Assembly: GCA_017991415.1 (NCBI GenBank)
Contig: JAGOQR010000002.1
Span: 97,109-161,108, forward strand
Direction of reading: 5' to 3'
Length of the DNA: 64,000 nt
DNA from: Candidatus Magasanikiibacteriota bacterium
Lineage (GTDB): Bacteria; Patescibacteriota; Patescibacteriia; Magasanikbacterales; GWA2-37-8
The translations under genes and the position numbers were made by a program. The notes beneath the pieces were generated by a model. That model worked only from the letters and a program-made list of their open reading frames with translations. It did no database searches and was not told the DNA's origin. The stretch's first letter is position 1, and each line of letters begins with the position of its first letter. This document shows, one piece after another, positions 2,307-51,900 of the stretch.

Positions 2307-3341
2307 TTAAGACATTGCTTGAACTAACATCTCTGCCATAGCATCCATATATCGGCGCGCATCTATAGACAAAGAAGGTATACAAACTGCAGGGCGAGAA
2401 TTAAGCTCTACTAATTTAAATCCATCTTTAGAATTAACAAAGTCTGAAGCAAAAATACTTGGTCGATATTGCGCCAATACAGTGTTTATACGCTCTATCA
2501 TAGGAAGAAGTATTGGTGGTAACTGATCTAAAGACACCTGCACTTCACTGCCTCCCTGAGATACATTTGCTAAAAAAGAGCCGGGTTGTGGCACTCGCAC
2601 CAACATAAATACTGGGTTACCATTAATAGTAATAACACGAATATCGTGCAGGCCATCTACGATTCTCGGGATACCCACAGAATTATCTACAAATTCTTGC
2701 AATAAAATATTATCCCAACTGTCATAGAGGAATTCGTCAATCTCACCTACTGAACGTATATATATTCCTCGCCCGCCGGATAAAAAATTCTTCTTTACAA
2801 CGATTTTATCTGTTTTTTTTAAACCCCACTGGTTTACTATTTGCACATACTCATCATAGGAGCAAATAGTAGAAGTTTTGGGTGATAGATCTGGAAATAA
2901 ACGCGCCGTAGCAACCTTATCAACACAAATTTGATCAAGGTCAGGATGATTAATAATTGGACAATCATAAATAGCAGGAATTGTATTTTTATCATCACGA
3001 TTAAAAATAAGGTCTGCCTCAATATGTTTGTTTATCAATATAAGTTGCCCGTCCCGCACCTGCCATCCATGAGAAAAAATTCCTTTCCCCATATACGAAT
3101 TGCCTCGCACTATATATACTTCAATATTATGCTCTTCGACATTTTTGATAAGACCCTGATACACCTCCCAGTAAGGGTATACTGAGGAATTAAACGGGTA
3201 TCCCATCGGCTCTGAGTCAGAAAAATATATGGCTAATTTTTTCATAATACCTATAACAATAACTCTAACAACATACTCTGTCAACCATATTATTGTCTGA
3301 AAAAAAACCCTATGGTATAGTACGTTTTTAATCTGAAACAC
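2307..3341 (-). CDS. ATP-grasp family ligase (alpha-L-glutamate ligase/RimK-related)
   Basis: Motifs VVKKNFLSGGRGIYI and LVELNSRPA (E-x-N) are ATP-grasp hallmarks. It lies tail-to-tail/adjacent to another ATP-grasp gene. Confidence 0.65.
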   Translation of the reverse strand: MFQIKNVLYHRVFFQTIIWLTEYVVRVIVIGIMKKLAIYFSDSEPMGYPFNSSVYPYWEVYQGLIKNVEEHNIEVYIVRGNSYMGKGIFSHGWQVRDGQLILINKHIEADLIFNRDDKNTIPAIYDCPIINHPDLDQICVDKVATARLFPDLSPKTSTICSYDEYVQIVNQWGLKKTDKIVVKKNFLSGGRGIYIRSVGEIDEFLYDSWDNILLQEFVDNSVGIPRIVDGLHDIRVITINGNPVFMLVRVPQPGSFLANVSQGGSEVQVSLDQLPPILLPMIERINTVLAQYRPSIFASDFVNSKDGFKLVELNSRPAVCIPSLSIDARRYMDAMAEMLVQAMS

Positions 3342-3349
3342 TATAGTTT

Positions 3350-4876
3350 ATGATAAAAAAAATACTTGTACTCTGCACATTTACTTCTCTGATAAATGGC
3401 ATAATTTTTATACCTGCAAAAGCTCAAACACCCACTCCTACTACACCACCAATAACTACAAGCTTTTCTCTTGATGCAAAAATCACCGCTGAAAAAAATA
3501 TTCGAATCAACAAAAAAGCAATCTTTGACGCGTCTGATTCTATTTTAGCTACATCAACTATTCCTGCTGAATATATTTGGGATTTTGGTGTCGGACCTAA
3601 AATAGAAGGCAAAGAAGTTGTTCAATCATTTTCCGCTACTGGTAAACAAATAGTCACCCTTACCGTACGCCAAGGACAAGCACAAGCGAGCGCACAAAAG
3701 GAGATATTTATATTTAATAAAAAAGCTTTGCTAGTTGCAGACCAAACTAATATTGCTGCCATAGAAAGCATACAAGCGCAGGCAGCAGAAAATGGCATCG
3801 CCCTAGAACTACTGCCTACAGCAGAAAAAGAAGGAACGCTCCTCACCGAAGATGCTTTGGTACAAAAAATTAAAGAGGCAACAGACTATATTAAAGATTC
3901 CGATATTCTTCTTTTTTATACCCAATCTCCCGTAGGGCTGCAGGCGTTTAATTTATACTGGAGAGATCTTGACACCTCAACTAAAGAAATCATTAAAAAT
4001 AAGTTTCTTGCAGTTATTTCTGATAACAACCTGGACACTGCGGCAAATCTTGCATATCAAACATTTAACATTGTTGAACCAAGCTATATTTTACTGACAA
4101 GACCAGAAGCCATCAACCCTATATTCCTCACTGAAGATACAACCGACATAACCGAAACACTTGCAAATCGCGGCATTGAATACAAAATAATTGATAGACG
4201 CGGTGAAAAACCTCCGTTGTTTATGCTTTCTCGTTTCGTTACAGATCTTGTCTCAAAAGGCGTCTCATCAAACATTATCTATATCATTCTTATTGTCCCC
4301 TTTTTAGCCTGCATCGCATCTCTCGGCAAACAAATTATTGGCATCAGTACTTTTGGTATTTACACACCAGTCATTATTACCATCTCATTTTTTATTCTTG
4401 GCTTACGATTAGGCATTACTACCTTTATCTTCGCGGTCACCGTTGGCTATATCGTAAAATATATTCTTAATAAATTTGAATTATTGTACTTGCCAAAAAT
4501 AGCACTTAACCTGGCTATTATCAGTCTTTCTTTCCTATTTGTTATCTGGCTCGTGCTGCAATATGGCACATCGGTTCCATTATCAATGGCTATATTTCCA
4601 ATGCTTGTTATGTCAACTGTTTCAGAAAAATTTATGGCTGCGCAAAACGAAGAAGGCGTGCGCAGCGCAATTTTCGCCATTATCGGCACTTTATTTATCG
4701 TCATAGTATCATACTATTTTATTACCTGGTCTTATTTTAATAACCTCCTATTATCATGGCCAGAGCTCGTACTTACACCTGTTCTTATTACAATTATCTT
4801 AGGCAAATTTACTGGCCTTCGCCTTGCAGAACTGGTCCGCTTCCGCAGTTTACTTACTGAACATCAAGAAGAATAG
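3350..4876 (+). CDS. Membrane protein with an N-terminal signal, a PT-rich linker, an extracytoplasmic PKD-like domain and about 7 C-terminal TM helices
   Basis: N-terminus MIKKILVLCTFTSLINGIIFIPAKA is signal-like. YIWDFGVGP...GKQIVTLTV matches the PKD WDFGDG...Y-V-LTV signature. C-terminal 220 aa contain about 7 hydrophobic helices. It may correspond to the 7TM partner seen in RimK-related ligase cassettes (memory-based inference). Confidence 0.55.
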   Translation: MIKKILVLCTFTSLINGIIFIPAKAQTPTPTTPPITTSFSLDAKITAEKNIRINKKAIFDASDSILATSTIPAEYIWDFGVGPKIEGKEVVQSFSATGKQIVTLTVRQGQAQASAQKEIFIFNKKALLVADQTNIAAIESIQAQAAENGIALELLPTAEKEGTLLTEDALVQKIKEATDYIKDSDILLFYTQSPVGLQAFNLYWRDLDTSTKEIIKNKFLAVISDNNLDTAANLAYQTFNIVEPSYILLTRPEAINPIFLTEDTTDITETLANRGIEYKIIDRRGEKPPLFMLSRFVTDLVSKGVSSNIIYIILIVPFLACIASLGKQIIGISTFGIYTPVIITISFFILGLRLGITTFIFAVTVGYIVKYILNKFELLYLPKIALNLAIISLSFLFVIWLVLQYGTSVPLSMAIFPMLVMSTVSEKFMAAQNEEGVRSAIFAIIGTLFIVIVSYYFITWSYFNNLLLSWPELVLTPVLITIILGKFTGLRLAELVRFRSLLTEHQEE

Positions 4877-4878
4877 GT

Positions 4879-7236
4879 ATGGCTTTATCTCGTAATTACA
4901 AATTATCTTTTTTTGAACGGCTTGATGGAGTGCTTGGCATTAACGCACGCAATCTTTTGTACATAAGTCGATTTAATAGTAAAGCAAACAAAAGTTTTGC
5001 TGACGACAAAATGTTTACAAAAAATTATTTACAATCTCGAGGACTTGGCGCAGCCAAGGTATACACGGTGCTTAAAAATTATAACGATCTAAAACAATTC
5101 AACCCAAAAAGCCTACCCGACAATTTTGTTATCAAGCCAAATCATGGCTATGGCGGCGAAGGCATTGTGGTTTTTGCCGAAAAAAAAGGAAATAATTTTA
5201 TCGATATCGCTGGCCAAGAATATGACTGGAAAGCAATAAGCCGACATATATCCTCTATTCTGGACGGAGAATATGCTATTTCAGGATTAACAGACCAGGC
5301 AATTATTGAGGAACGTTTGGTAGCTCATAGTTTTTTTAAGCCCTATGCCAAACGCGGACTACCCGACATTCGAGTAATTGTATTCAACTATATTCCAATT
5401 ATTGCCATGCTTCGTTTACCAACCGACGAATCTCAAGGAAAAGCAAACCTTCATTTAGGGGCAGTTGGGGTAGGTATTGATATTGCTTCAGGCTGTGCCA
5501 CATACGGAGTATACAAAAATAAATTTACACGTACCTTACCTGGTGGAGAAAAATTATCAGAAATAAAAATTCCACACTGGGATGAAATTTTACTTGCAGC
5601 ATCTAACGCGCAAAAAGTGAGTCAGATTGGTTTTTTAGCAGTTGATATAGTACTCACAACCACTGGTATAAAAATTTTAGAACTCAACGCTCGCGCAGGT
5701 CTTTCAATCCAAATAGCTAACCAAGTACCGCTGCGAGCTCGCTTAAAAAAAGCAGCTGACCTAAAAGTACCAAGTCCAGAAAAAGGTGTCGAACTATGCA
5801 AGGCACTATTCAGCTCTAATGTATCATCTGATACCCGAGATACCAAAGACAGCCGCACACCTATTGGACTTTTTGAACATGTCGAGCTTCTTAATACTGG
5901 CAATAACACGGTGCTCGCAAAAATTGACCCGCACTATGATGGAGTACTTCTTGATAAGAGCCTGATAACGAATAAGACAGAAAGTTCATTTATTAATATA
6001 AAACTAAAGGGCAAACGGTTGACTATTCCAACTACATGCGGTGATTTATCTAGCCAACCATACAAAATTATTATTGGCGGAAAATTTCTTGAACATTTTA
6101 CTATTCATAGCACACTCAATAAACACCTCCTCTTTCAAGCACCTGCAACCGATAGTGGCCGTGAAGAAAAAATTATTGCCAACATCGATAAAAAACTCTA
6201 CGAGGTAGATAAAAAAATTACCATTGCTGGTTTCTTACGGCCTATAAACCACGACGAAGAAAAACGAGCTTTTTTTGAAAACCCTACCCGATCCCCTCAA
6301 TTTTTTTACCGTACAACTACTTTGGCTACTAACCAGATTAGAAAAGATCTCAAAGCCTTACCCGAAGCAAGCCATCCTTTATACAGCTTGTATCAAAAGA
6401 AAATAGCAGAAATAAATACAAAATTAGATTTACTCGAATCTTTGGATAGCCCTAAATTACAAACTGCCTCAGAAAAACTGTACGGCCCCGCCAACCGCAT
6501 CCTCTACGATCAAGCAGTGCGATATATTCATGAGCATCCGATTAGACCAGACACAAGCAACAAGGTGAGTTTTAAACAAATTGTAAAACGACTCACTACC
6601 TTTTTAGAAGAACATGCGCTCACTAATTGGCACATAAAAGTTGCCGCAGATAGAGTGAACGATATTTCAATTAGCTTAGACGGCACCATACATTTGCGCG
6701 AAGGAACGACCTTTACAGAAAATCGATTAAAGGCAGTTATTGCGCATGAAATTGAAACTCATATTTATAGAGCCGAAAATAGCAAACTACAAAAATATAA
6801 AATTTTTGAAATCGGTACCGCTGGCTATATTGCCACAGAAGAAGGTTTGGCAGTATACAATCAACGAGCCCTCAATGTACCGCTCGGAGAAAAAGAAATT
6901 TGGGCACCATTACGAAGTATCGGCGCATATTTGGCTCAAGAAATGTCATTTGTTGATTTGTTTCATTATTTAAAAAGTAATTACGGCCTAGAAGATGATT
7001 CGGCTTGGCGCACGTGTGTTAAAGTAAAACGAGGACTCGCTGATACAAGTAAAAAAATAGCCTTCACCCGAGATACTATTTACTTCAGAGGCTTGCAGAT
7101 GGTAGAAGAATTTTTAACAGATAACACTGCTGAAAAACTAAAAAATTTATATATTGGAAAAATTGGTATTGAAGACATAGACCAGCTTGGCGCGTTAAGT
7201 CAGTACAAAACAAGATATTTATTAAAAACAAAATAA
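4879..7236 (+). CDS. Fusion protein: N-terminal ATP-grasp ligase (alpha-L-glutamate-ligase-related) plus C-terminal DUF1704/QEGLA-motif domain with HExxH
   Basis: N-terminal half has FVIKPNHGYGGEGIVV and ILELNARAGL (ATP-grasp). C-terminal part has AHEIETHIYRAE (HExxH-like) and ATEEGLAVYNQ (QEGLA-like motif of DUF1704). Confidence 0.6.
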   Translation: MALSRNYKLSFFERLDGVLGINARNLLYISRFNSKANKSFADDKMFTKNYLQSRGLGAAKVYTVLKNYNDLKQFNPKSLPDNFVIKPNHGYGGEGIVVFAEKKGNNFIDIAGQEYDWKAISRHISSILDGEYAISGLTDQAIIEERLVAHSFFKPYAKRGLPDIRVIVFNYIPIIAMLRLPTDESQGKANLHLGAVGVGIDIASGCATYGVYKNKFTRTLPGGEKLSEIKIPHWDEILLAASNAQKVSQIGFLAVDIVLTTTGIKILELNARAGLSIQIANQVPLRARLKKAADLKVPSPEKGVELCKALFSSNVSSDTRDTKDSRTPIGLFEHVELLNTGNNTVLAKIDPHYDGVLLDKSLITNKTESSFINIKLKGKRLTIPTTCGDLSSQPYKIIIGGKFLEHFTIHSTLNKHLLFQAPATDSGREEKIIANIDKKLYEVDKKITIAGFLRPINHDEEKRAFFENPTRSPQFFYRTTTLATNQIRKDLKALPEASHPLYSLYQKKIAEINTKLDLLESLDSPKLQTASEKLYGPANRILYDQAVRYIHEHPIRPDTSNKVSFKQIVKRLTTFLEEHALTNWHIKVAADRVNDISISLDGTIHLREGTTFTENRLKAVIAHEIETHIYRAENSKLQKYKIFEIGTAGYIATEEGLAVYNQRALNVPLGEKEIWAPLRSIGAYLAQEMSFVDLFHYLKSNYGLEDDSAWRTCVKVKRGLADTSKKIAFTRDTIYFRGLQMVEEFLTDNTAEKLKNLYIGKIGIEDIDQLGALSQYKTRYLLKTK

Positions 7237-17995: not shown

Positions 17996-18973
17996 TTACT
18001 CTTTCCATTTAAATTTATCGTCTTCTTCGTCATAATAAATCATGTCAGCAATTTTTGGATCATTATACATTTCGGTAAACTCCTCCAACTTGCGCATTAC
18101 CCCCTCTATATTTTCAAAATTTCCCTCTGCGTCTTTTTTAAACTCGGATTCTATTTGTGATTTTATTTCTTGAGGGGTTAGGGGTTCTTCACTACTACCA
18201 ACAACCACATCAGACTCCGAATCAACGGGGCTTTCTTCGGGCAACAACTGCTCAATTGTAATATTTTCTATTTCGTCAGCCTGATCTGCTGATGGCAGAG
18301 TTTGATTCTCCAACTGTTCCGGATTTAAAAATAAATCTACTACAAACCAAATTTTTTCAATATCTATTACTTGAAAAAATTCAATTAGTTCTAAAAATCT
18401 GTTTACACCTACATCTGGATCTGTGTATGTATAGATAAGAGCTTCTTTAGGAAAAAGAATTTGTCTTATTTTACTAATAAGCTCAGCTTCCTCTATAGAA
18501 GAGGCCCTTCTTTTTTGCATCAATATATACTCAGATACCAAATCTTTTAGTATTATTTTTTTTCCTTGCCATAATCCTAAAGACTCCTCGGATTGTAAAA
18601 ATGCCGTTTGAATCTTGAGATAAAAAGCTTGAGTATCCTGTTTATCTAAAGTTCGAAAACCTAAATACCACATCAATGATTCTAGAACAGAATAATTATT
18701 AAACAAAGCCATTGGTACTTGTTGAATAAAAGCGGTTATCACATCCTCTTTAGACAGAGAGTTCAGATTTTTCCAAGTTAGCTCTACATACCATTTCCAA
18801 TAAGTAAATTTAAAAGCCTCCCGCTGCTCTGCCGACACAACAGAAAAATAATCTCTCATTTCTTTCCAAAGGGAATTAGAGGTATTAATATCAGAAATAA
18901 TCCTCTGAAATTCAAGTTCTTTCTGTTTAACCTCTTCAATTGTTAAATTTTTTTTATCAAAAAACATATTCAA
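17996..18973 (-). CDS. hypothetical acidic protein (T4SS-like cluster)
   Basis: 325-aa ORF with a very acidic C-terminus. Tight spacing with neighbours: its stop at 17996 is 16 nt from the next start at 17980. Confidence 0.4.
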   Translation of the reverse strand: MNMFFDKKNLTIEEVKQKELEFQRIISDINTSNSLWKEMRDYFSVVSAEQREAFKFTYWKWYVELTWKNLNSLSKEDVITAFIQQVPMALFNNYSVLESLMWYLGFRTLDKQDTQAFYLKIQTAFLQSEESLGLWQGKKIILKDLVSEYILMQKRRASSIEEAELISKIRQILFPKEALIYTYTDPDVGVNRFLELIEFFQVIDIEKIWFVVDLFLNPEQLENQTLPSADQADEIENITIEQLLPEESPVDSESDVVVGSSEEPLTPQEIKSQIESEFKKDAEGNFENIEGVMRKLEEFTEMYNDPKIADMIYYDEEDDKFKWKE

Positions 18974-21900
18974 TTATGGCAGATTTTTTATCTTATCCAA
19001 TAATTCACTTGCTCTGGCGTCGAACCTATCCTTAGCATTTTTATCAGTCAATACTTTACTAATTTCATTTAAAAGATTCTCGTACTCAGCTTTATTAGTA
19101 GAATTAACATCCGCATTATTCAAAGAACTAAAGAAACCATTCTGCATCTGCGATATAAATAAATCATTTTTACCTTGGAATATAGCCGCAAGCTGCTCTG
19201 CTCTTTTTGAATCAAAGCCCACAATTTGATTCTCAACATTTATTTTTGCATACCCATTGGCTGTAATCCACTTTCTGTGATCAGCTTCAGCAATTTTGGT
19301 AGGATAAAAACCAGACCCCACATTTATTTCTCCAGTATTAACCGTTTTGGTAGCCTGATCATACTGCCCAAAAAATCTTTCCAACTGACCGGAACTAGTT
19401 CTTCTATCGCCTACCAAACCAAATAGCGCACCCGCACCTTTCATACCGGCACTCTTATTCGCATTACTATATAATGTTAAAGCACCTTGAGCTTTTTCGA
19501 TTCCACCAAAAGCATCATATACTTTCTTAGCAGCAAGGGTTTCGTCACCCGCCATAACAACCCTGCCTAAAATTTTACTTAATTCAGCTCTGATACGATT
19601 AGTATCATCAATGACTTCTGTCCAACCAATGGTCTTTAGAGATTCACTATCCCCAAGTTCCGCCGCTTCTTTACCTTCAGATTTGAGGGCTGTTTGTAGT
19701 GCCATGTTTCGTTGAATAGTTTTATTTTTAATCTGCTCTAGACGTTTGACTTCATCTGGTTTGTTAGCTGTACTCGCTGCAGCTATATCAACCTCTAACT
19801 GCTGAATTTTTAATGGCATAGCTTTTAATGCAAAGGTTTTATCTTCCCAACTCATTGCAGAAACTCTATCACTTTCTCTTTTTGCTGTTTTAGATTGAAT
19901 CTCGGCCAAAACTTGATTGGCTCTTAAATCATCACCCATCTTCCTAAATGATTTAGCGCGCTGCTCAGCTTCGGCTTCTTCTTTTGAAATATCAAAATCT
20001 TCTTTTATGTTTGCAGTTTGAGCTTTGGTGAAGTTTATAATTTCCTGAGTTTTTGCACCTTTGCCTTCTAATAATTTTTTTATTTGCTTTAACTCTTCAA
20101 GCTCTTTTTCTGCACGTAATTTTTCATCTAACTGCTTTGACGCCGCCTCTTCTTTTGCTGCCTTATGTTCCAAAGTATGACCTAGTCCAGTTTGAAGTAA
20201 TTTTTCTTTTGTCTCTAACCTATGACGCTCTTCTTCCGCATGCAAGGCATGTTTGGTTAAATCGGCTTTTTCTCCAGCCTCTAAAGCCCTCTTACTTCTG
20301 CTTTGATCAAATATTTGCGCTCGGCTAAACTTTCCAGATTTTGCCAATTCCTCAGGAGTTTTACCCACCTTAAGCTCTGCTGCAATTTCATTACTTGCAT
20401 CATTAAACTTCTTATAGAAAGTTTCTAATTTTTCTTTTTTAATATTGGACCCTGTTTCCTCTAATTTATGTAGTCTGGCCTCGGCCTCTGTCTTAAACTT
20501 TCCTATAGGCGTTTTGCTTGTACTTACCAAATGCTCAAGTTGCTCATGAGCATACTCTGCCCCTGATTCTGCATCTTTTGTGTACTCTTCTTTAAAAGCA
20601 GCTGGCGCGAACCATAAAGCCATGCGCGCCAAAGCCCTCGTATTGCCTGCAAAAGACTTTTTTAATTCTGTCTTTCCATTTTTGTCTGTATCAACTTCAT
20701 AGCCATTATCCTGCAACTGCTTACTGTAATTCTCTATAGCACTGTCATCATGACTAGCCACCGCAGCATTACGGAGAGCAACTAATTTTTGAATCTCTGG
20801 ATGTTCTTTTGATAAATCTTTGACCTTTTCTTTACCGTAAGCTTTATTAATATTTTCTCCAGCTTTATAAAGTCTTGGCTCTACCCACTTCTTTGAATAC
20901 CACTTAGACGCAGCAGCTTTAATTCTCCTACCTCTTCTATTCCACTCATCACCACCAACAATAGGAGCTTTCATTAAAGCAAATTTACCTGCAGCTTTGG
21001 CACCCTCTCCAACCTTACCCGCAGTCCATCTAGCAGCTTGTAGACCAGAGGCGTACATTGCCACTTTCTTACCCAACTCTCCAGCACTTCCCATCATAGA
21101 ACCACCCGCAACTCCTAATTCTTGGGCCATTTTTGCACCAGCAAGAAGCATGGCAATAGCGATTATAAAATTGGCCATTTTGTCCCAACTCATTATTTTG
21201 GTAATACCAACAGTTTCTTCTTCGGCTGTGCCTGATTGCAATAATTGATCTTTTTGTAAGGCGTTATGTTTTACAATGTCGTCGTGAATAGTTCCAGAAC
21301 CAACCGTTACAAAAGAAAGCCACAGAAAAAAAGCAATGACCGGACCAGACACGACATTACTACCAAATTGATGCCACCAATCGTGGGCATATTTTTCGGT
21401 TTGATGTAATACATTGAGGACAAATGCCAAAGGAGATAACACGATAAGCACCCAAAGCATGGCCATGCGAGCTACGATTAAAAACAAAAAGGCAAGCATG
21501 GTAACGAGCATGATAACTGAGAAAGTAATAGAGGCCACAGCCGCCACAAAAGTGACACTGGCACTGCCTGTTGTCCCCTGGCCTGCAGCTAACGCAAAAA
21601 TTTGATCTACCTGGAACATGTTAACCAGATTTCCGCTGGCAGTAGCAGCAATACCATTTACAAAGGTAACCATGACAATCTGTGCAATATCGATAATAAG
21701 ACCACAAATTACACGGCTAAAATTGACAAGTACGGCGGCTATAAGTAATTTTACCAGTAAGTGCTTATATTCGTATTGTTCTATTCCTAAAATAGTGCCG
21801 AATGCAATCATAAGCAGCACAACTACAAAGAACATATTGGTCATGTCGCGAATCATCACCCAACCTACCGTAACAGCCGGAGAGTCTATAAACCCGTTAT

Positions 21901-22165
21901 ACCCTGCAACCTCGATAATAAACTTGAGCACGAAAAAAGTGAGCTTGATAAAAAACCCAGCCAGTGCTAACAAAACAGAAGCAAAAAAATTCATGAGATC
22001 CTCGCCGATACCAGCATGAGCAGTAGGGGTAAAAATCAACCAGGCAGAGATAATAATACTAGACAGAACAACAATACTAACCAAACCTAATTTTTTTCGG
22101 GGACGAAAAAAATCCCAGCCTTTGCTAAGTATCAAGGTAAATGTGCTTTCAAGTTTCGCAAACAT
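18974..22165 (-). CDS. VirB6/TrbL-like polytopic membrane protein with about 700-aa K/E-rich coiled-coil C-terminal extension
   Basis: The N-terminal 330 aa or so contain 7-8 TM helices in a TrbL/VirB6-like arrangement. The remainder is lysine/glutamate-rich and predicted coiled coil. It is the first gene of the minus-strand T4SS-like operon. Confidence 0.55.
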   Translation of the reverse strand: MFAKLESTFTLILSKGWDFFRPRKKLGLVSIVVLSSIIISAWLIFTPTAHAGIGEDLMNFFASVLLALAGFFIKLTFFVLKFIIEVAGYNGFIDSPAVTVGWVMIRDMTNMFFVVVLLMIAFGTILGIEQYEYKHLLVKLLIAAVLVNFSRVICGLIIDIAQIVMVTFVNGIAATASGNLVNMFQVDQIFALAAGQGTTGSASVTFVAAVASITFSVIMLVTMLAFLFLIVARMAMLWVLIVLSPLAFVLNVLHQTEKYAHDWWHQFGSNVVSGPVIAFFLWLSFVTVGSGTIHDDIVKHNALQKDQLLQSGTAEEETVGITKIMSWDKMANFIIAIAMLLAGAKMAQELGVAGGSMMGSAGELGKKVAMYASGLQAARWTAGKVGEGAKAAGKFALMKAPIVGGDEWNRRGRRIKAAASKWYSKKWVEPRLYKAGENINKAYGKEKVKDLSKEHPEIQKLVALRNAAVASHDDSAIENYSKQLQDNGYEVDTDKNGKTELKKSFAGNTRALARMALWFAPAAFKEEYTKDAESGAEYAHEQLEHLVSTSKTPIGKFKTEAEARLHKLEETGSNIKKEKLETFYKKFNDASNEIAAELKVGKTPEELAKSGKFSRAQIFDQSRSKRALEAGEKADLTKHALHAEEERHRLETKEKLLQTGLGHTLEHKAAKEEAASKQLDEKLRAEKELEELKQIKKLLEGKGAKTQEIINFTKAQTANIKEDFDISKEEAEAEQRAKSFRKMGDDLRANQVLAEIQSKTAKRESDRVSAMSWEDKTFALKAMPLKIQQLEVDIAAASTANKPDEVKRLEQIKNKTIQRNMALQTALKSEGKEAAELGDSESLKTIGWTEVIDDTNRIRAELSKILGRVVMAGDETLAAKKVYDAFGGIEKAQGALTLYSNANKSAGMKGAGALFGLVGDRRTSSGQLERFFGQYDQATKTVNTGEINVGSGFYPTKIAEADHRKWITANGYAKINVENQIVGFDSKRAEQLAAIFQGKNDLFISQMQNGFFSSLNNADVNSTNKAEYENLLNEISKVLTDKNAKDRFDARASELLDKIKNLP

Positions 22166-22450
22166 TTTCTAGCAATTATGTTAAACTAATTGTACCATAT
22201 TTTAACTGAATCAACAATTAGATTTAGGTATATAAAATTGGGGTGTGGATAAAAAATAGCATTATTTTTACGATATAAAAAATTTTCATCGCACTACCCC
22301 TTGTACAAAATAATTATAAGTGTGTATACTAAATATAAGAGATGTAAAGTAAAAAATATAACTGATTTTTTAAGCAAAATGAATAATTAAATCTGGATTT
22401 AAAGAATTTGTTCAATTTGCTTAAAATAACAGACGTAGACGCTTTTGGGA

Positions 22451-22479
22451 TTGACAAAAGCCCCGAAAAAGCGTATAAT
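22451..22479 (+). promoter_or_regulatory. Perfect sigma70 consensus promoter TTGACA-17 nt-TATAAT pointing toward the GC-rich island
   Basis: TTGACA at 22451-22456. 17-nt spacer. TATAAT at 22474-22479. Orientation is rightward, toward the ORF at 22697. Confidence 0.5.
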
Positions 22480-22696
22480 ACGACGTTATTGCAAAATAAC
22501 CGCTCCTTACAACGTGCCAAGATTAGCAAAACTGCTAATTTTAGCCAAAATATGATGATGGAATAATTTGACCTAGCTGATAGGCGCAAAGATCTGGGCT
22601 GATACTTACCCCGCTCAAACGAGGTAGTTACAAGCTCAGACTCTAAACCCTGTCTCTAATGTCGCGTGAGCGACTGTTCAACCCCTGGAGGATCCC

Positions 22697-23227
22697 ATGC
22701 GCATCGCCCTCTCGTCTCTTGCCCTCGCCCTGGCCCTCATCGGCTGTACCGACCCCGACGTCAACATCGTCGACGGCGGACCCACGCCGGACGGACCCAA
22801 GCTCGACGCGGAGACCACCGAGGTCGACGCGGGCATCGACGCTCCGGGTGACATCTGCTTGTCGCTCGGTACTCCGCCGGAGGGCGCCTACCTCCTTGGG
22901 GAGGGGTCACGCAGCTGGCGTTGCGGCTTCTCGGCAGCACCGGGAAATCACAACACCTTCGCAATCGCCGCAGGTACGGACTGGATGTGCTCGAGCATCC
23001 GAGTCGAACCGACCACGACGGCCCAGGGTCCCGCCTGCCTGGTTTCCTGTATGGATGCCTCTGGCAACACCATGGACCAGCTCAGCAACACGGACTACCG
23101 TGAGCTGACCGTGGAGCGAGCCGGGGCTACCATGCCGTACAGGTTCTACTACGGCATCCCCGGAACGCCGCCCGCAGAGGCAGAGTTTGTCTGCCACGAC
23201 CCGGCAACGGTGCCATTTCCATCGTGA
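22697..23227 (+). CDS. Putative lipoprotein encoded in a high-GC foreign island
   Basis: 176-aa ORF. GGAGG lies 6 nt before the ATG. Signal peptide with lipobox LALALALIG-C. GC3-rich codons (GCC, CTC, GAC, ACC and so on) are unlike every other gene in the window. Followed by a GC hairpin. Confidence 0.6.
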   Translation: MRIALSSLALALALIGCTDPDVNIVDGGPTPDGPKLDAETTEVDAGIDAPGDICLSLGTPPEGAYLLGEGSRSWRCGFSAAPGNHNTFAIAAGTDWMCSSIRVEPTTTAQGPACLVSCMDASGNTMDQLSNTDYRELTVERAGATMPYRFYYGIPGTPPAEAEFVCHDPATVPFPS

Positions 23228-23248
23228 ACTGTCACGACCCATCATCAC

Positions 23249-23277
23249 GGCAGCCGAACCATCGCGGTTCGGCTGCC
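23249..23277 (+). terminator. Perfect 12-bp GC-rich hairpin (GGCAGCCGAACC-atcgc-GGTTCGGCTGCC) downstream of the island ORF
   Basis: Perfect inverted repeat with no T-tract. This is the high-GC-organism style of terminator or REP-like element. Confidence 0.45.
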
Positions 23278-23317
23278 ACCCTCAACTTAATAGAAAAAAA
23301 TTTTCTCTTGAGTAGAA

Positions 23318-23349
23318 CAAAAAATCTCCTTTTTATAGGAGATTTTTTG
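23318..23349 (-). terminator. Rho-independent terminator of the giant-protein gene
   Basis: AAATCTCCT-ttttat-AGGAGATTT hairpin flanked by A/T runs, immediately downstream (minus strand) of the stop at 23367. Confidence 0.6.
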
Positions 23350-23366
23350 TTTTTTATAAATTATTA

Positions 23367-26300
23367 CTAGTTATTTGGAGGCACAATTATTCTTCCACTA
23401 AATGTAGAAAACGGACCTTCAGGCAATTCACATTCATTCGCATAACAGTTAGACACTCCTGGACTTGCAAAACCACCACATGACCCGTTGCAATAACCCC
23501 AGTTATCTTTTAGCTGTACTTTTGGCTGGAACACACAACAACCGCCAGACAACGATTGTGTTTGTGCATCTGGACAGCTATCTGTCCAACCATTGCCTCC
23601 GCGAAGACATTGATAGACGTGGTCAAATCGGAAATAAGCTGAGTCACATGTTTTTCCTAAAATCTGACCAAAGTTTTGAGCTTTACTTTCGGCAAAACAG
23701 TTATCCAGGTACATACAATCTGTATTGGAGGCGCATGTTTTTCCTGTGTTAAGATCGTAGACTCCTGGTGTCGAAGAAGCAACCATACAAGTACCAGATG
23801 AACCACATCGGCCATTTACTGCCCCGCGCTGATTACGGAAATAACCATCCAAAGATACAACGCTCGTATCTCCCCAATCTAATTTAATTTTCTTAATCGG
23901 CATTTGATTTTTATCTGCAAAGCCAAAGAACTTTGCATTTACCAACGCGATATTAGTATTAAACAAAATATCTCCAGAAGATTTATCATTAATAGACATA
24001 CCAGTTATAGTACTTTCTAAACATTTACCGCCAGGTTTACAGCTTCCCAAAGCCATAGCCTTGGGGACTGGGTTAGCAAAAGAATCAGTAAAATTATATG
24101 GCCGCACCACAGTAGCAGAATCAGTACCTGGAGCAGTGGTTCGAACATAGGCCCAAGAAGTACCTGTAGGTACCCAATTCCAGACACTGTCTATTTTCGC
24201 AAAAATTTGAGCAAAACTACTTTTTGCTTGTGCAATTGATTTTTGGCTTGCCGGACCATTTACTGTTTCATTAGGAGACGGGCTTGTCTTTAAACAATCT
24301 CCGCCACAGCTATATGGTGAACCAAAGATTGCAGGAGGTAAAGATGGTGTAGGTTCACTATAATGGCTAAAAATACTAATGAGTGTTTCTGGTACAAGCG
24401 GAGTAAACATTCCCAAGCTGCCAAATGGCACATTTTGTAAAGAATTTTTATATGCCAATGTTCCTGGGTCGATTACATAGCTACTCCTACTCCACAGTCT
24501 ATCTGTCCAACCAATACTTGAGTATGGATTATCTTCGGTTTGAGCAATATTAAGACACGTTTCTCGCAAACCTACATTCAATGTAAACGAAGCAGACTCA
24601 GTATCACCCGCATCACCTGAAAAACAGGTTAAATTTATCCTATCCAACCTACCGTCCGAATTAAACACAGTTCTAATTGCACAACCATCATCATTGTCGT
24701 CTATATCTCCTCCCAAACAAATATCTTGATAATTATCATTACCCGCAACATCTATACTACCAGCACAATTTGATAATAAATCTTTAAACTGCTCTCCCTG
24801 TATACCGGCAGTATTAGGATCAGCATACTGGTAATGATTATTTCCATCACCCTCACCATCATCATACCGCATATACCAAAAATTTTTATCACGACCATCG
24901 GACCATACATACTTGCCAACATTCAATCCACCAGCTTCACCGACAAATACTTGCGGGTTATTTAAAATTGTTTCTTCAGATCCGTCTCGTTTTACCACCT
25001 GCATCTGAGAATTATACTTGGTAATATATCCATTTCTAATAAAAAATTTATTGGTACCGTTTGGAAACCAGTCACTATTACCGGTTGCTGCAATCATTAT
25101 ATAGTCAATCTCATCTCTATATATAGGCGTATTAACATTCAATGTTATTACGCGTTTTTCACGGCTATTTGATCCGTGACCAGCCGCACTAACCACTGAT
25201 TGCTGTCCAATCAGCTTATCATACGTAACAATGTCTGAGCCTACTATATTGACTACAGTTTGATTGCCTCTGGCTCCTAGACAATAATACTTACCAGATG
25301 CATCATTTGCTTGGAAACCAGCTTCAACGTGTTGATTGTTAATATCAAAAGCACCAGTAATATTATCTTTAGGGAACCAAGTAAGACATGCAAAAAGGTT
25401 TTGTTCGGCATTAAGAAGACGAGAAAAATCTGGCTCGATACAATAACCCTGCCAACCAATAAGACGTGATTGTTTTCTGACTTTTTGACAACTACCGTTT
25501 GTACAGTCTGCATCAGAGCTACAAACCTTATCTGCATTAACACCCCCCATACAAATACCCGGAACAACACTCTTTACGACTTGATTATTTTTATCCAAAA
25601 TACCCTCACTATTAGGACTATTAAAATTCCAATACTTAGCAAGCGAATCACCATACGTTACTTTGGTATAGTTACAATCACAACTATTTGCTTTATCGAT
25701 ATCTGTAGTAAAACCACTTGCTTCATTACATGTATTAACAGAATCAAACGTTACTGAATTTCCTACAGCCTCACTGTTTGGGAAAGGTGAAGTCTCTTCT
25801 GGGTATGCGCGACAAGAAGCAGGAAGTGATTGTCTTGAAACACCCGACAAAGAACTATCTAAATTCTGAACACATACTGGATTAGTGGCTCCAAGACAAA
25901 CACCAATATCACTGCGACCACAGGACTGGCCAATACTTCCTGGCGCACAAATTGGACTCAATGGATTAGCAGTACAATTTGACCCCGTGCCACACGCTAA
26001 TGTTTTTGCCAAACGCCATTCTGGAAGAGAGGCCGTGCCAATATTTACCTCGGAGAGCTCTTCTACTGGAAAGGCATTAAAGATGCTGTAACCACTGAAG
26101 TCTTGGCCTTTCCATTCGATGCTACGATTGCGATATGCATTATCGGTTAAGACTTGACCGCTTAACTCATGCGCATTATCAAGCCAATTAGCACAGTTAA
26201 TAATATCGCCAGTTGACCCAGAAGAAAAAGCCTGATTACAGCGACCAATAGCATCACAGACCTCTTTATAACTACCAGTCTGAGTATCAAAAACTCTATG

Positions 26301-48246: not shown

Positions 48247-51200
48247 CTAAACTACTATACTAATTAATTTTCCTTTCACGTAAATAATTTTCTTTGGCTC
48301 TTTGCCTTCTAGCCATTTCTGAATTTTCTCGCTTGATAAGACTGCTTTTTTAGCATCTTCTTCGGAAATTTCGGCAGGCATTGTTATGGTATCGCGTAAT
48401 TTGCCATTTACTTGTACTGCCAAAGTGATTTCGTTTTCTATGGTTAGTTTTTCATCATATTCTGGCCAAGATTCTAGGGCAATACTTTTTTTATGACCGA
48501 GCTGACTCCATATTTCTTCGCACATGTGCGGAGCAAACGGAGACAGCGCTTTAACAAACAGAGCGTAGTGTGCAGCAAGTATTTTTTCTTGCTTGGACAT
48601 TTCATTTGCAAGCTCCATCATTTTGGCTATAGCTGTATTAAACCGCATTGTTTCTATATCTTCGGTTACTTTTTTAATTGTTTGATGTAATTGTGTTTCC
48701 AGTTTAGCATCAACAACATGAGATTTAGATAAAGCGCCCGCTACAATTTTTTCTTGTAACGCCCAAACTTTATCCAAAAACCGACGCACACCAACAAGCC
48801 CATTTGTATCCCACTCTACGGCCTGGTCGAATGGACCCATAAACATGATATACGTACGCAGCGTATCCGCACCAAATTGATCTACCATCTCATCTGGATT
48901 GATAACATTACCACGAGACTTACTCATCTTTTCTCCACCTTTAGCCAGAATCATGCCATGTGAAGTGCGTTTTTTATACGGCTCACCGGTTGGCACCAAC
49001 CCAATATCGTATAAAAATTGATTCCAAAAACGAGAATACAACAAATGCAAAACCGTATGTTCCATACCGCCATTATACCAATCTACTGGCTGCCAATATG
49101 CAAGCAAATCTTGATTCCAAAATTTATCGCCCTTAAGGTTCAACATTTTTTCGCCACCGAGTGCATATGCCAAGAAATACCAACTAGAACCTGCCCAATT
49201 TGGCATAGTATCTGTTTCGCGCTTGGCAGGATTGCCACACTGCGGACATTTGGTATGTACCCATTTAGTAATAGCCGCGAGCGGAGATTCGCCCGTATCA
49301 GTCGGCTGATATTTTTCTACTTTTGGAAGTTTGAGTGGTAATTCACTTTCTGGCAATGGCACCCAACCAGTGTTTTTACTGTGTAAAAATTCTTCTAAAA
49401 GTTCTGGGATTTTTTTGTCCGTAAAATGCCTAAAGCCATTCCATTTTTTAAATACCCAAGTACTTGGGACAGTACCACGCATACTACCAGGTAGCATATG
49501 ATCATCGGCAGAAATAATAACAGTCTTATTGAGTGCATGCTTTTCAACCTGTTTCCAATCAAACGATACATTCCAAAACTTTTTTAATGCTTCAACATCA
49601 ACACCACTATGTTTTTGCGCAAACTCTTTCCAATCACGCGATTCAATTTCACCGATAGCTGAGGCAACCAAATATACATGGCCAATTTTCTTTTTACTTT
49701 TTTCGAGTAAATGCAACGCCGCCTTGCTGCCTAGGCTATGACCAACCAGCACGTCATTTTCTCCAAGTGTATCAAAATATGGTTGCAACGCAGCAAGCCA
49801 TTTATTAAGGTCTGGATGATTACTATCTGGTAACGTTGGTACCATTACTTCAAATCCTTGTTTTTCTAATTCTGTTTTCATCCATGGCAGCCAATTACTA
49901 TCTCCACTTGCTTCAAAGCCATGTATTAATAATACTTTTTGTTTTTGGTTTTTACAATGTTCACAAAAAACAAGCGGGATTGGTTCACCCCAATAGCGCT
50001 GACGAGAAAATACCCAGTCACGTAATTTATAATTAATCTGTTTTTTACCTATGTTATTTTTTTCTACAAATTCTAAAACCTTTTGTTTTGCCGCACTTGT
50101 TGTTAAGCCATTTAAAAAATCAGAATGCACTGATACGCCTTCACCAGCATAGAGCTCTTGTGTAAATAAACGGTGCACATCTTGAGGCACTTTTAAAATC
50201 TGTTCGTCTGGTAATAACTCTTTTAATAAATCATACCCGCAATAACCCCATGCACAGCCAATTATTTTTTTACGATCCATGCAATTTTCTAATTCATAGA
50301 CATCCGCTTTGGAGTCGGTAAAATAATAGACATCTTGCATAGAAATCCCCCACTCTTTACAAACTTGTTCTATTTTTTCTTCTTTAGAGTGATGATCTTC
50401 GTATGTTAAAACATGGGTTGGATTAAGACCAGTTTCTTGTATTCTATTTTTAATGTACAAACTAGATCCAGCAGAAATAATTGCGATCTTGGTATTAGGA
50501 ATACGCTGCAACTCTTTATTAAAATCAGAAAATAAAGGATAGTTAATTTTTGCCATTGCCTCGCCAAACCGACGGGTCCAATCAAGCTTTGCTGCCACCT
50601 CTGCTTCGGTTAGGCTATGCCCTTTAACATGGTTCGGTTTATTGCTAAAGTATTTTGTCATGGACTCAATTACTTCTTCTCTACTCTTATCACCATCCAT
50701 GGTCATTTGCGATGCAACACACGCCTCAAACGTATCACCAATCACCCCATCAAAATCAAAAATCAAATATTTAGTTTTTTCGTTTGCTCCACTATTTGTC
50801 TGTACCACTTGCTTAATCGGCAGACCAAACTTCTTAGCAAAATCAAAATCACGTTCATCGTGAGCTGGCACGCCCATAATGGCGCCAGTACCAACACCGC
50901 CCATAACATAATTAGTTACCCACACTGGTACTTCTTCTTTGGAAACTGGATTAACGGCCATAATGCCAGCATATATACCAGTTTTCTCTTGCTCTTCACG
51001 CGTAGTTGTTGCCGCGCGATTTTTTAATTCCTGGTCAATATATGTTGTTACTTCGTTACTAGCAGCCCAACCAACATCTAGCCAACTCTTGGCCAATTCT
51101 GGAGAGATAGCCAAAAATGTTACACCAAAAATAGTATCTGGTCGTGTAGTAAATACAGTTACCGAATGTGCACCTTCTGGTTGAGATAGCACGCGTAATG

Positions 51201-51900
51201 GAAATATTACTTCTACACCTTCGCTTTTACCAATCCAATTTTCTTGACTGGTACGAGCGCGCTCAATATAATCTACTTCTTTTAAGCCTTCTAATAATTT
51301 ATCCGCATATTTGGTAATAGCAAGCATCCATTGTTCTTTATTTCTTTTTTCTACCACCGTACCACAACGCTCACAACAACCACCAACCACTTCTTCGTTG
51401 GCCAATCCGATCTTATCTTTTGGGCACCAATTAATTGGCTGATTCTTTTTATATGCCAGTCCATGTTTATAGAATTGTAAAAATAACCATTGGGTCCATT
51501 TGTAATACTGCGGATCGGTGGTATCTACTTGTCTGGACCAATCAAAACCAAACCCAAGCATTTTGAGCTGGCGAGTAAAATTAGCAATATTTTTTTTGGT
51601 TACCTCGGCCGGTGGCTTACCGGTTTTAATAGCAAAATTTTCGGTAGGCAGCCCAAACGCATCAAATCCAATCGGAAATAATACATTTTTTCCTTCCATT
51701 CTTTTTTTGCGCGTAATAACATCCATGGCCGTAAACGGACGCGGATGACCAACATGCAACCCTTCACCACTTGGGTACGGAAACTCAATAAGACCATAAA
51801 ACTTTTCTTTTGTTTTACTTTCTGTAACTTCAAATGTTTTTTCTTTTGCCCAATATTTTTGCCATTTTGGCTCTATTTTTTTCGGGTCGTATTTTTTCAT
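48247..51900 (-). CDS. leuS: Leucyl-tRNA synthetase with two inserted enzyme-like domains (HAD-like and YdeN/RBBP9-like alpha/beta hydrolase)
   Basis: HVGHPRPFTAMDV (HIGH region). Editing-domain motifs. LRDWVFSRQRYWGEPIP, RETDTMPNWAGSSWYF and KMSKSRGNV. Extra segments: IFDFDGVIGDT... (HAD DxDG) and VLLIHGFEASGDSNWLPWMK...VGHSLGSKAA (GxSxG hydrolase). Confidence 0.85.
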   Translation of the reverse strand: MKKYDPKKIEPKWQKYWAKEKTFEVTESKTKEKFYGLIEFPYPSGEGLHVGHPRPFTAMDVITRKKRMEGKNVLFPIGFDAFGLPTENFAIKTGKPPAEVTKKNIANFTRQLKMLGFGFDWSRQVDTTDPQYYKWTQWLFLQFYKHGLAYKKNQPINWCPKDKIGLANEEVVGGCCERCGTVVEKRNKEQWMLAITKYADKLLEGLKEVDYIERARTSQENWIGKSEGVEVIFPLRVLSQPEGAHSVTVFTTRPDTIFGVTFLAISPELAKSWLDVGWAASNEVTTYIDQELKNRAATTTREEQEKTGIYAGIMAVNPVSKEEVPVWVTNYVMGGVGTGAIMGVPAHDERDFDFAKKFGLPIKQVVQTNSGANEKTKYLIFDFDGVIGDTFEACVASQMTMDGDKSREEVIESMTKYFSNKPNHVKGHSLTEAEVAAKLDWTRRFGEAMAKINYPLFSDFNKELQRIPNTKIAIISAGSSLYIKNRIQETGLNPTHVLTYEDHHSKEEKIEQVCKEWGISMQDVYYFTDSKADVYELENCMDRKKIIGCAWGYCGYDLLKELLPDEQILKVPQDVHRLFTQELYAGEGVSVHSDFLNGLTTSAAKQKVLEFVEKNNIGKKQINYKLRDWVFSRQRYWGEPIPLVFCEHCKNQKQKVLLIHGFEASGDSNWLPWMKTELEKQGFEVMVPTLPDSNHPDLNKWLAALQPYFDTLGENDVLVGHSLGSKAALHLLEKSKKKIGHVYLVASAIGEIESRDWKEFAQKHSGVDVEALKKFWNVSFDWKQVEKHALNKTVIISADDHMLPGSMRGTVPSTWVFKKWNGFRHFTDKKIPELLEEFLHSKNTGWVPLPESELPLKLPKVEKYQPTDTGESPLAAITKWVHTKCPQCGNPAKRETDTMPNWAGSSWYFLAYALGGEKMLNLKGDKFWNQDLLAYWQPVDWYNGGMEHTVLHLLYSRFWNQFLYDIGLVPTGEPYKKRTSHGMILAKGGEKMSKSRGNVINPDEMVDQFGADTLRTYIMFMGPFDQAVEWDTNGLVGVRRFLDKVWALQEKIVAGALSKSHVVDAKLETQLHQTIKKVTEDIETMRFNTAIAKMMELANEMSKQEKILAAHYALFVKALSPFAPHMCEEIWSQLGHKKSIALESWPEYDEKLTIENEITLAVQVNGKLRDTITMPAEISEEDAKKAVLSSEKIQKWLEGKEPKKIIYVKGKLISIVV

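Follow-up and report, generated by a model that had tools for sequence, protein, structure and literature searches.

A very probable sigma-70 promoter of perfect consensus at a conserved slot with a GC-rich, variable lipoprotein gene in a Magasanikbacteria genome

The window, a stretch of 64,000 nucleotides from a Candidatus Magasanikiibacteriota genome (contig JAGOQR010000002.1, positions 97,109 to 161,108), contains on its + strand an exact match to the sigma-70 promoter consensus, TTGACA-17-TATAAT (positions 22451-22479), which we refer to as P2. P2 is almost certainly a real housekeeping (sigma-70/RpoD-type) promoter, ordinary in kind and unusually perfect in form, and very likely the genuine rightward promoter of an open reading frame (ORF) for a 176-aa lipoprotein. 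We further consider it highly probable that P2 is the functional core of a promoter resident in a conserved intergenic slot, from which it would drive a structured-leader mRNA for a variable surface lipoprotein. The main support comes from conservation: all nine lipoprotein loci compared have TTGAC(A/T)-17-TAnnnT at this place, and four of the nine have the perfect consensus. This pattern of hexamers and spacing reads as a clear phylogenetic footprint of a working housekeeping-type promoter.

A promoter conserved across lineages

P2 lies in 530 bp of AT-rich intergenic DNA (22166-22696, 19-33% GC) between the start of a 1063-aa ORF (18974-22165, - strand) and the 176-aa ORF (22697-23227, + strand), towards which it points. 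The surrounding + strand reads ...gggaTTGACAaaagccccgaaaaagcgTATAATacgacgtt..., and the elements of P2 are as follows:

22451-22456, + strand: -35 hexamer TTGACA, found by consensus scan and pattern search
22457-22473, + strand: 17-nt spacer, A-rich, with a conserved 3' AAAAAGnG, sequence aaagccccgaaaaagcg
22474-22479, + strand: -10 hexamer TATAAT, found by consensus scan and pattern search

The site had been singled out in a first-pass annotation of the window, and its exact match, strand and positions stand, as does the ORF start at 22697, which is preceded by GGAGG at 22687-22691 and lies beyond a leader of 217 nt counted from the end of the -10 element. A pattern search of both strands found P2 to be the sole 12/12 match in the window, where 0.03 such matches are expected by chance, and a promoter scan of the 15-30 kb region gave it as the one 12/12 site. 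P2 has the features that define the sigma-70 class, namely the hexamers, a spacer within 17 ± 1 bp and an intergenic orientation towards a gene bearing a ribosome-binding site (RBS). The genome uses the same consensus elsewhere: intergenic, correctly oriented sites with 10-11/12 matches precede five other genes, those for groEL (TTGACA-16-TAGAAT), infB (TTGACT-17-TATAAT), nusA, RNase Y and an ABC-transporter ATPase. P2 is therefore the top of a normal distribution and not a foreign object.

Ten further contigs, from about eight lineages, were found to have this intergenic slot, in the order gene of ~1060 aa (- strand), slot, giant gene (- strand). The loci, with their handles, are:

L001: same species level, flanks 97% identical; lipoprotein allele in the slot
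L003/L007 and L006: found via the flanking protein; GC-rich lipoprotein
L005/L011: found via the flanking protein; moderately GC-enriched lipoprotein
L004/L009: found via the flanking protein; empty site
L010: found via the flanking protein; unrelated cargo
L012, L016, L017 and L019: found via lipoprotein homologues; GC-rich lipoprotein

The records of L003, L004 and L006 (CAZBWU010000001.1, CAZETA010000001.1 and CAYIHE010000003.1, respectively) are titled "uncultured Gammaproteobacteria bacterium". These loci are syntenic with the Magasanikbacteria/Patescibacteria locus at 56-61% protein identity, and the labels are thus probably wrong.

When the nine lipoprotein loci, including that of the window, are aligned on the -35 hexamer, the promoters read:

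window, L001, L005 and L019: TTGACA-17-TATAAT
L012 and L016: TTGACA-17-TATACT
L006: TTGACT-17-TATACT
L003: TTGACA-17-TAAAAT
L017: TTGACA-17-TAGGAT

The -35 element is TTGACA in eight of the nine loci and TTGACT in L006, and the spacer is 17 nt long in every one. The -10 element is TATAAT four times, TATACT three times, and TAAAAT and TAGGAT once each, with T-12, A-11 and T-7 invariant; these are the bases that matter most for the contacts of sigma region 2. Over seven lineages the mean pairwise identity is 0.95 for the -35, 0.77 for the -10 and 0.56 for the spacer, against 0.29 for the 30 nt upstream and 0.42 for the 12 nt downstream. Against L001, too, the hexamers are unchanged and the spacer differs at three positions. 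The check proposed when the site was first noticed was whether relatives with the GC-rich gene conserve the hexamers, and it is passed.

A chance match in AT-rich intergenic DNA, without promoter function, is hard to credit on these data. AT-rich spacers do yield many promoter-like hexamers: sites with at least 9/12 matches numbered 41 in the 15-kb scan, against 39.8 expected from shuffles, which is no enrichment, and one perfect match turned up in 3 of 100 dinucleotide-preserving shuffles of the window. Since weaker matches are no commoner than in shuffled sequence, only the extreme 12/12 match stands out. Chance is already contradicted by conservation, as the hexamers and their spacing are kept in all nine loci of about seven lineages, where the adjacent 30 nt are 29% identical, and as the promoter has a constant position and orientation with respect to the ORF across loci.

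A probably resident promoter and exchangeable cargo

All but two of the related lineages have the lipoprotein gene at the slot. In L010, the slot contains an unrelated, non-GC-rich cargo, including a cold-shock-domain protein, behind TTGACA-17-TAAGGT, in which T-12, A-11 and T-7 are kept. L004 (5830-5960, minus strand; identical to L009) has an empty site, where the sequence runs from TTGACAAAACTCCTAAAAT straight into the downstream terminator (TTGAGCAGAACAAAAAATC...), and TTGACA with half of the spacer survives. The unrelated cargo of L010 and the surviving -35 of L004 make a resident slot promoter likelier than an imported one; the suggestion that a GC-rich island might have brought P2 along is not supported by these two loci. 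P2 and the first ~80 nt of the leader are also AT-rich like the host. The simplest reading is thus a resident slot promoter placed in front of exchangeable cargo, with an indel boundary that cannot be fixed to the nucleotide.

The leader RNA

Judging from the usual distance of ~7 nt, transcription from P2 would start at 22485/22486, which gives a leader of ~211 nt with the following elements:

22485-22500, + strand: hairpin HP1, GUUAUU-GCAA-AAUAAC, at the predicted 5' end of the transcript
22500-22518, + strand: single-stranded motif CCGCTCCTTACAACGTGCC (family consensus CGCTCTTTACAAnGTGCT), the best-conserved leader segment
22516-22545, + strand: RNA hairpin HP2, containing the palindrome TTAGCAaaacTGCTAA (22523-22538)
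22574-22658, + strand: HP3, a long variable hairpin that folds in the window and in L001 despite ~25% sequence divergence
22661-22674, + strand: GC hairpin HP4, GUCGC-GUGA-GCGAC, with a loop of GNRA type, a short way 5' of the RBS
22687-22691, + strand: Shine-Dalgarno sequence GGAGG, 5 nt before the ATG at 22697

The leaders of the window, L001, L012, L019, L016 and L017 have the same order of elements, and in four loci the leader folds more stably than shuffled sequence (z = -2.7, -4.3, -6.5 and -5.3). HP1 is predicted in all six close loci, with all cells paired, one compensatory pair (AU to GC) and one G·U. HP2, an inverted repeat with 13-nt arms (22516-22528 / 22533-22545), has 88% of its cells paired, two compensatory pairs and several G·U. 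In a structure alignment of six sequences of HP1, motif and HP2, five of them distinct, 91% of the cells of the two hairpins are paired, compared with 20-49% in controls with slid partners, and compensatory changes occur in three pairs. Long hairpins stand at the position of HP3 in L012, L016, L017, L003 and L006; HP4 has counterparts in L017 (with a GAAA loop), L003 and L006; most relatives have GGAG or AGGAG at the Shine-Dalgarno position. The 3' half of the leader (22560-22696) is ~25% diverged between the window and L001, strains that are otherwise 97% identical. Two leaders depart from the common plan: that of L003 is without HP1 and HP2, and the 37-nt leader of L005 keeps a related motif, CGTTCTTTTC(C/A)CA, without either hairpin.

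The first-pass annotation had offered two further readings of this region, a small RNA encoded by the leader and an operator at a palindrome. Production by P2 of mainly a small RNA of ~65 nt (HP1-motif-HP2), set free by termination or processing, with the lipoprotein made through read-through only, strikes us as quite improbable. This 5' domain is better conserved than any other part of the leader and keeps the AT-rich composition of the host, unlike the rest of the unit, and its covariance model matches at this slot only, with 72-85 bits. However, no hairpin of the leader (HP2, HP3 or HP4) is followed by a U-tract, so that a separate small RNA is unlikely and HP4 is no typical terminator; instead, the leader runs into the RBS. 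The perfect promoter of L005 precedes a leader without HP1 and HP2, L003 likewise has neither, and the Rfam search at gathering score gave no match in the window leader or in eight related loci. A permissive Rfam scan of 22100-23450 returned at E < 0.01 only sub-threshold, terminator-like matches 3' of the ORF, on both strands.

As for the palindrome, TTAGCA-aaac-TGCTAA exists, at 22523-22538 and not at 22521-22536 where it had first been placed. It is the core of HP2 and lies at +38 to +54, inside the transcript. In relatives the DNA dyad is broken and the RNA pairing kept: G·U changes preserve the RNA helix and destroy the DNA palindrome, which is therefore better read as an RNA hairpin. A second inverted repeat, 22436-22446 / 22467-22477, is found at the promoter itself, around the -35, and here a change at 22447 in L001 (G to A) is matched by one at 22463 (C to T), as would suit a protein-binding dyad. 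This repeat is nonetheless absent, by eye, in L012, L016, L017, L003, L006 and L005. No regulator gene is adjacent, the neighbours being T4SS-like (type IV secretion system-like) and surface-protein genes without matches to DNA-binding domains. We thus regard repressor operators at either repeat, and with them a tightly regulated P2, as rather improbable.

It is possible, although we hold this only tentatively, that the leader is a cis-regulatory RNA (riboswitch, thermosensor or protein-binding element) that gates translation or mRNA decay. P2 would then be effectively constitutive and control post-transcriptional, a reading which is compatible with P2 as the resident promoter of the lipoprotein gene and refines it. 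The nearly invariant 18-nt single-stranded motif, with conserved hairpins on both sides, is consistent with this, as is the GNRA hairpin adjoining the RBS. In the minimum-energy fold of the window, CUCC (22503-22506) is paired with the GGAG of the RBS, and such a pairing of CUC(C/U)UU with the RBS is also predicted in L003. It is absent in L006, and the L012 motif does not match by eye. Anti-Shine-Dalgarno pairing by the CUCUUU motif, which is not consistent across loci, thus counts as no more than a possibility. HP3 is moreover highly variable in sequence and length, and the leader matches no known family and points to no particular ligand or binding protein.

The leader motif does not recur beyond chance elsewhere in the window, and there is thus no sign of a regulon. 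Matches to the 17-nt motif in viral contigs, 80 in number, are due to chance, as the covariance model scores none of them as the complete motif (best E 0.11). A mini-ORF, ATGATGATGGAATAA (MMME*, 22552-22566), was considered as a conserved leader peptide and rejected: it has no RBS and is absent or different in other lineages. L001 (with a TAG stop) and L016 (MMMEI*) retain it, L012 and L019 carry another mini-ORF instead, and L017 and L006 have none; it is probably an RNA sequence motif.

The GC-rich lipoprotein gene

The gene served by P2 is the following:

22697-23227, + strand: 176-aa Cys-containing lipoprotein precursor (MRIALSSLALALALIGC...), 66% GC, GC content at third codon positions (GC3) 0.79, with signal peptide and lipobox

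The protein is identical to KBC69_03010 of a Candidatus Magasanikbacteria metagenome-assembled genome. The ORF is coding, as seen from its signal peptide and lipobox, an in-frame GC3 of 0.79-0.88 and a nonsynonymous divergence (dN) below the synonymous one (dS). The lipobox, read by eye as [LVI][ASTVI][GAS]C after an N-terminal signal peptide, is …LALIGC in MRIALSSLALALALIGC, and its counterparts in relatives, found in the same way, are LLAAC, LTAC, VAAGC and LFAGC; the ORF has several cysteines.

The gene falls in a patch (~22650-23280) with 60-72% GC, against 38% in the window, and this is the only patch of the window with at least 58% GC. Its GC3 contrasts with 0.26-0.36 in neighbouring genes. 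Across both AT/GC junctions the sequence is matched exactly by an independent contig of 1402 bp that comes from another run, so the patch is not an assembly artefact or chimera. Synthetic or vector contamination, which a perfect promoter and a BamHI site (GGATCC, 22690-22695) might call to mind, was rejected because at least eight environmental assemblies, independent of each other, show the locus with natural variation; L001 has no GGATCC. At the same slot, the lipoprotein genes of L001, L003, L006, L012, L016, L017 and L019 have 62-71% GC and a GC3 of 0.75-0.88, and that of L005 is moderately GC-enriched (54%). The genomes carrying the GC-rich gene have 38-44% GC. The patches are located as follows, the last four positions being approximate:

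window: 22650-23280
L001: 9911-10650
L003: 5011-5580
L006: 4971-5520
L012: ~5980-6560
L016: ~390-960
L017: ~2440-2990
L019: ~2990-3570

Homologues of the lipoprotein are few. A word-indexed protein search found one, an exhaustive profile search of 1.84 billion representative proteins added three more, all at the same slot, and a search with a five-sequence profile gave one further family member; the homologues P0002-P0005 and P0010 occur at this slot only. For the L003 lipoprotein no homologue was found. The mature domains of L003, L006 and L005 are not detectably homologous to the family of the window, the signal peptide and linker being common to all. Sequence searches of the lipoprotein and the neighbouring proteins against Pfam, NCBIfam and PDB gave nothing informative, and an AlphaFold2 model from the five-sequence alignment has a pLDDT of 55 and shows a small beta-rich domain.

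Alleles of the gene form a mosaic. When the window is compared with L001, the flanking gene has a dS of 0.05 and codons 1-48 of the ORF one of 0.08, and the rest of the ORF reaches 1.11 (dN 0.36); the divergent segment spans 22845-23240 in the window and 10150-10580 in L001. With dS at 1.11 against 0.05-0.08, a divergent allele was imported by recombination, rather than shaped by amino-acid selection alone. A diversity-generating retroelement was rejected as the source of variation, given that the variation extends beyond a short 3' region, that dS is raised alongside dN and that there is no template-like second GC-rich copy in the 64 kb; the rejection did not include a whole-window screen for a reverse transcriptase gene.

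We consider it unlikely that the GC-rich unit is a recently acquired foreign cassette with its own promoter. Its composition would fit such an origin, as would the mature domains that are wholly different between some species and the empty site of L004, where the deletion boundary falls inside the spacer so that the -10 travels with the cargo. The AT-rich promoter and 5' leader match the host, however, and the L010 promoter stands before a cargo that is not GC-rich. Real homologues are confined to this slot; neither plasmid nor phage DNA matched the gene, and no protein relatives were found in viral contigs. The locus showed no integrase gene, no tRNA gene at its flanks and no direct repeats. 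Nor is the distribution patchy, as the same slot is filled in L001, L003, L005, L006, L012, L016, L017 and L019. The direction of substitution also bears on this question. Free decay of an import in an AT-rich genome is expected to give a roughly tenfold GC-to-AT skew, and no skew of that size is seen: polarised AT-to-GC and GC-to-AT changes are roughly balanced in the window and L001 (e.g. 12 vs 13 and 8 vs 10, with saturated outgroups), and L012 and L019 show a mild GC-to-AT skew (12 vs 28) in what is a rough test with saturated outgroups. The GC-richness therefore looks maintained rather than recent. Of the GC-rich island of the first-pass annotation, the compositional patch holds; a recent import does not, since the gene is present at this slot in all but two related lineages and without an outside donor.

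Such a composition might be kept up by gene conversion with a GC bias at a hotspot of recombination, or by selection acting on the mRNA. More speculatively, and with doubt prevailing, the slot might be a dedicated expression site of Magasanikbacteria-like bacteria from the Candidate Phyla Radiation (CPR), lying between the T4SS-like apparatus and the gene of a giant adhesin-like protein, into which orphan lipoprotein modules recombine and where GC-richness is actively maintained, for instance by such conversion or by selection for RNase-resistant mRNA, the whole forming a hypervariable host-interaction locus. If true, this would be a compositionally self-sustaining host-interaction locus of a kind not described so far.

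The predicted transcription unit and its surroundings

The 3' end of the unit has two further elements:

23249-23277, + strand: GC-rich 12-bp hairpin 3' of the ORF, without U-tract
23316-23351, both strands: AT-rich bidirectional intrinsic terminator, common with the convergent 2522-aa gene, with 15-nt perfect arms and T-runs on both strands

The hairpin has an equivalent in every lipoprotein locus and shows a compensatory change relative to L001 (A to C paired with T to G); the terminator is kept in all related loci. Transcription from P2 at ~22485/22486 would thus be expected to give a monocistronic mRNA of ~875 nt, consisting of HP1, the pyrimidine-rich single-stranded motif, HP2, HP3, HP4, GGAGG, the 176-aa ORF, the GC hairpin and the bidirectional terminator. 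Stabilising 5' structures are known from the ompA 5' untranslated region (UTR) and from Bacillus 5' stem-loops, and by analogy HP1, which would form the extreme 5' end, is expected to shield the mRNA; the window contains a gene for RNase Y. A promoter this close to perfect, hairpins at the 5' terminus and on the 3' side, and a strong RBS together suggest that a surface lipoprotein is expressed stably and at a high level, with a mature part that would be exchanged between strains.

Several points weigh against P2 as the strong resident promoter of such a unit. Output need not be highest with a perfect consensus, since RNA polymerase bound very tightly can be slow to leave the promoter. Translation might be held back by GC-rich codons in a genome that is AT-rich, a poor fit with maximal expression. 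The empty site of L004 has no -10 element, and its TTGACA could have a second role or be a mere relic. The covariation statistics of the leader are weak, with 23 and 50 of 500 shuffles reaching the observed values; with five distinct sequences giving such modest statistics, the structure of the HP1-motif-HP2 domain is supported but not proven.

Two other promoter-like sites lie in the same intergenic region:

22217-22212 (-35) and 22197-22189 (TGgTACAAT), - strand: predicted promoter of the T4SS-like operon, TTGTTG-17-TGgTACAAT, with an extended -10
22302-22330, + strand: P1, a weaker promoter-like site, TGTACA-17-TATACT, 9/12 in the scan

The operon is fairly called T4SS-like, as the minus-strand genes upstream include ones for PrgI-like, TraC-like and VirB4/TraG-like ATPase proteins. 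Its promoter has TGGTATAAT and caacaa elements that are kept at the same position in all related loci. P2 had been suspected of interfering with the regulation of this operon; the operon has its own conserved promoter 234 bp away, facing the opposite way, and at that distance and in divergent orientation the two neither overlap nor show any obvious interference in this genome. Back to back, they are separated by only ~70 nt in L004 and L005. P1 has a gtgTATA(A/C)T element, read by eye, that is kept in L003, L006, L012, L016 and L017, and P1 and P2 may be tandem promoters; between them lies an AT-rich inverted repeat (22362-22432) with 25-nt arms that are 84% complementary.

On the other side of the unit, the convergent 2522-aa protein has a carbohydrate-binding module. 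Two segments of the window, 18189-20068 and 24577-25261, gave no alignment to L001 under the BLAST settings employed, within flanks that are 90-97% identical. They correspond to a 325-aa ORF with the C-terminal part of the 1063-aa ORF, and to a stretch of the 2522-aa ORF, respectively; hypervariable patches thus also occur in neighbouring putative surface or T4SS-associated proteins.

Elsewhere in the window, a leucyl-tRNA synthetase ORF (48247-51900, - strand; 1217 aa) has an unusual architecture, with a HAD-like hydrolase domain (residues 379-534) and a serine-hydrolase / alpha-beta hydrolase domain (residues 656-804) inserted between the editing and anticodon-binding domains. An unusual 90-nt tRNA-Ser with anticodon ACT (531-620, ARAGORN) adjoins a normal tRNA-Ser(GCT) at 1081-1168, and Rfam confirms both as tRNAs.

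Implications

To our knowledge, CPR/Patescibacteria promoters have not been mapped experimentally. A footprinted textbook sigma-70 promoter in this group suggests that these reduced, ultra-small bacteria use the standard consensus, and P2 with its leader and RBS is predicted to form a ready-made strong module for reporters or genetic tools in CPR bacteria. The GC-rich, recombining orphan lipoprotein gene is more interesting than the ordinary promoter that serves it. As a persistently GC-rich and fast-swapping gene, it offers a clean natural case for asking what holds a gene far from the composition of its genome. Its product probably ranks with the surface proteins most strongly expressed in an uncultured lineage of episymbiont type, which makes the lipoprotein a candidate for contact with the host, or for evading phages or immunity.

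Comparison with known systems

In its -35, 17-bp spacer and -10, P2 is identical to the consensus of E. coli and Bacillus sigma-70 (RpoD) promoters and to the synthetic tac/"Pcon" type. Textbooks hold that the E. coli promoters characterised so far fall short of a perfect match to the consensus. P2, in contrast to the textbook E. coli promoters, is natural with 12/12 positions, and this form is common to four of nine orthologous loci. It has neither an UP element nor the TG of an extended -10, and its host is a CPR bacterium.

The predicted unit as a whole resembles those of E. coli lpp (Braun lipoprotein) and ompA, in which a small envelope protein gene is combined with a strong promoter, a structured and stabilising 5' UTR, a strong RBS and a tight terminator, including the 5'-terminal hairpin of ompA, to form a high-abundance envelope unit. 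There is no sequence homology with these units. Compared with theirs, the present leader is longer and contains a conserved motif of its own; the protein is hypervariable and its gene GC-rich, and abundance and mRNA stability are deduced from the architecture.

A fixed promoter and a constant N-terminus before a part replaced by recombination are also reminiscent of Neisseria pilE, Borrelia vlsE and the integron promoter Pc; here the counterpart is a dS of 1.1 in the mature domain against 0.05-0.08, and different cargo in different lineages. In contrast to these systems, no silent donor cassettes were seen (the 64 kb contain no other GC-rich patch), and the variation is between strains or species and not within a population. 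Neither an integrase gene nor attC-like sites were found at this locus. With horizontally acquired genomic islands, finally, the locus has in common a sharp compositional anomaly of ~630 bp bounded by hairpins. It differs from them in keeping the same position across species, in having no donor, mobility genes or target-site repeats, and in a composition that appears to be maintained.

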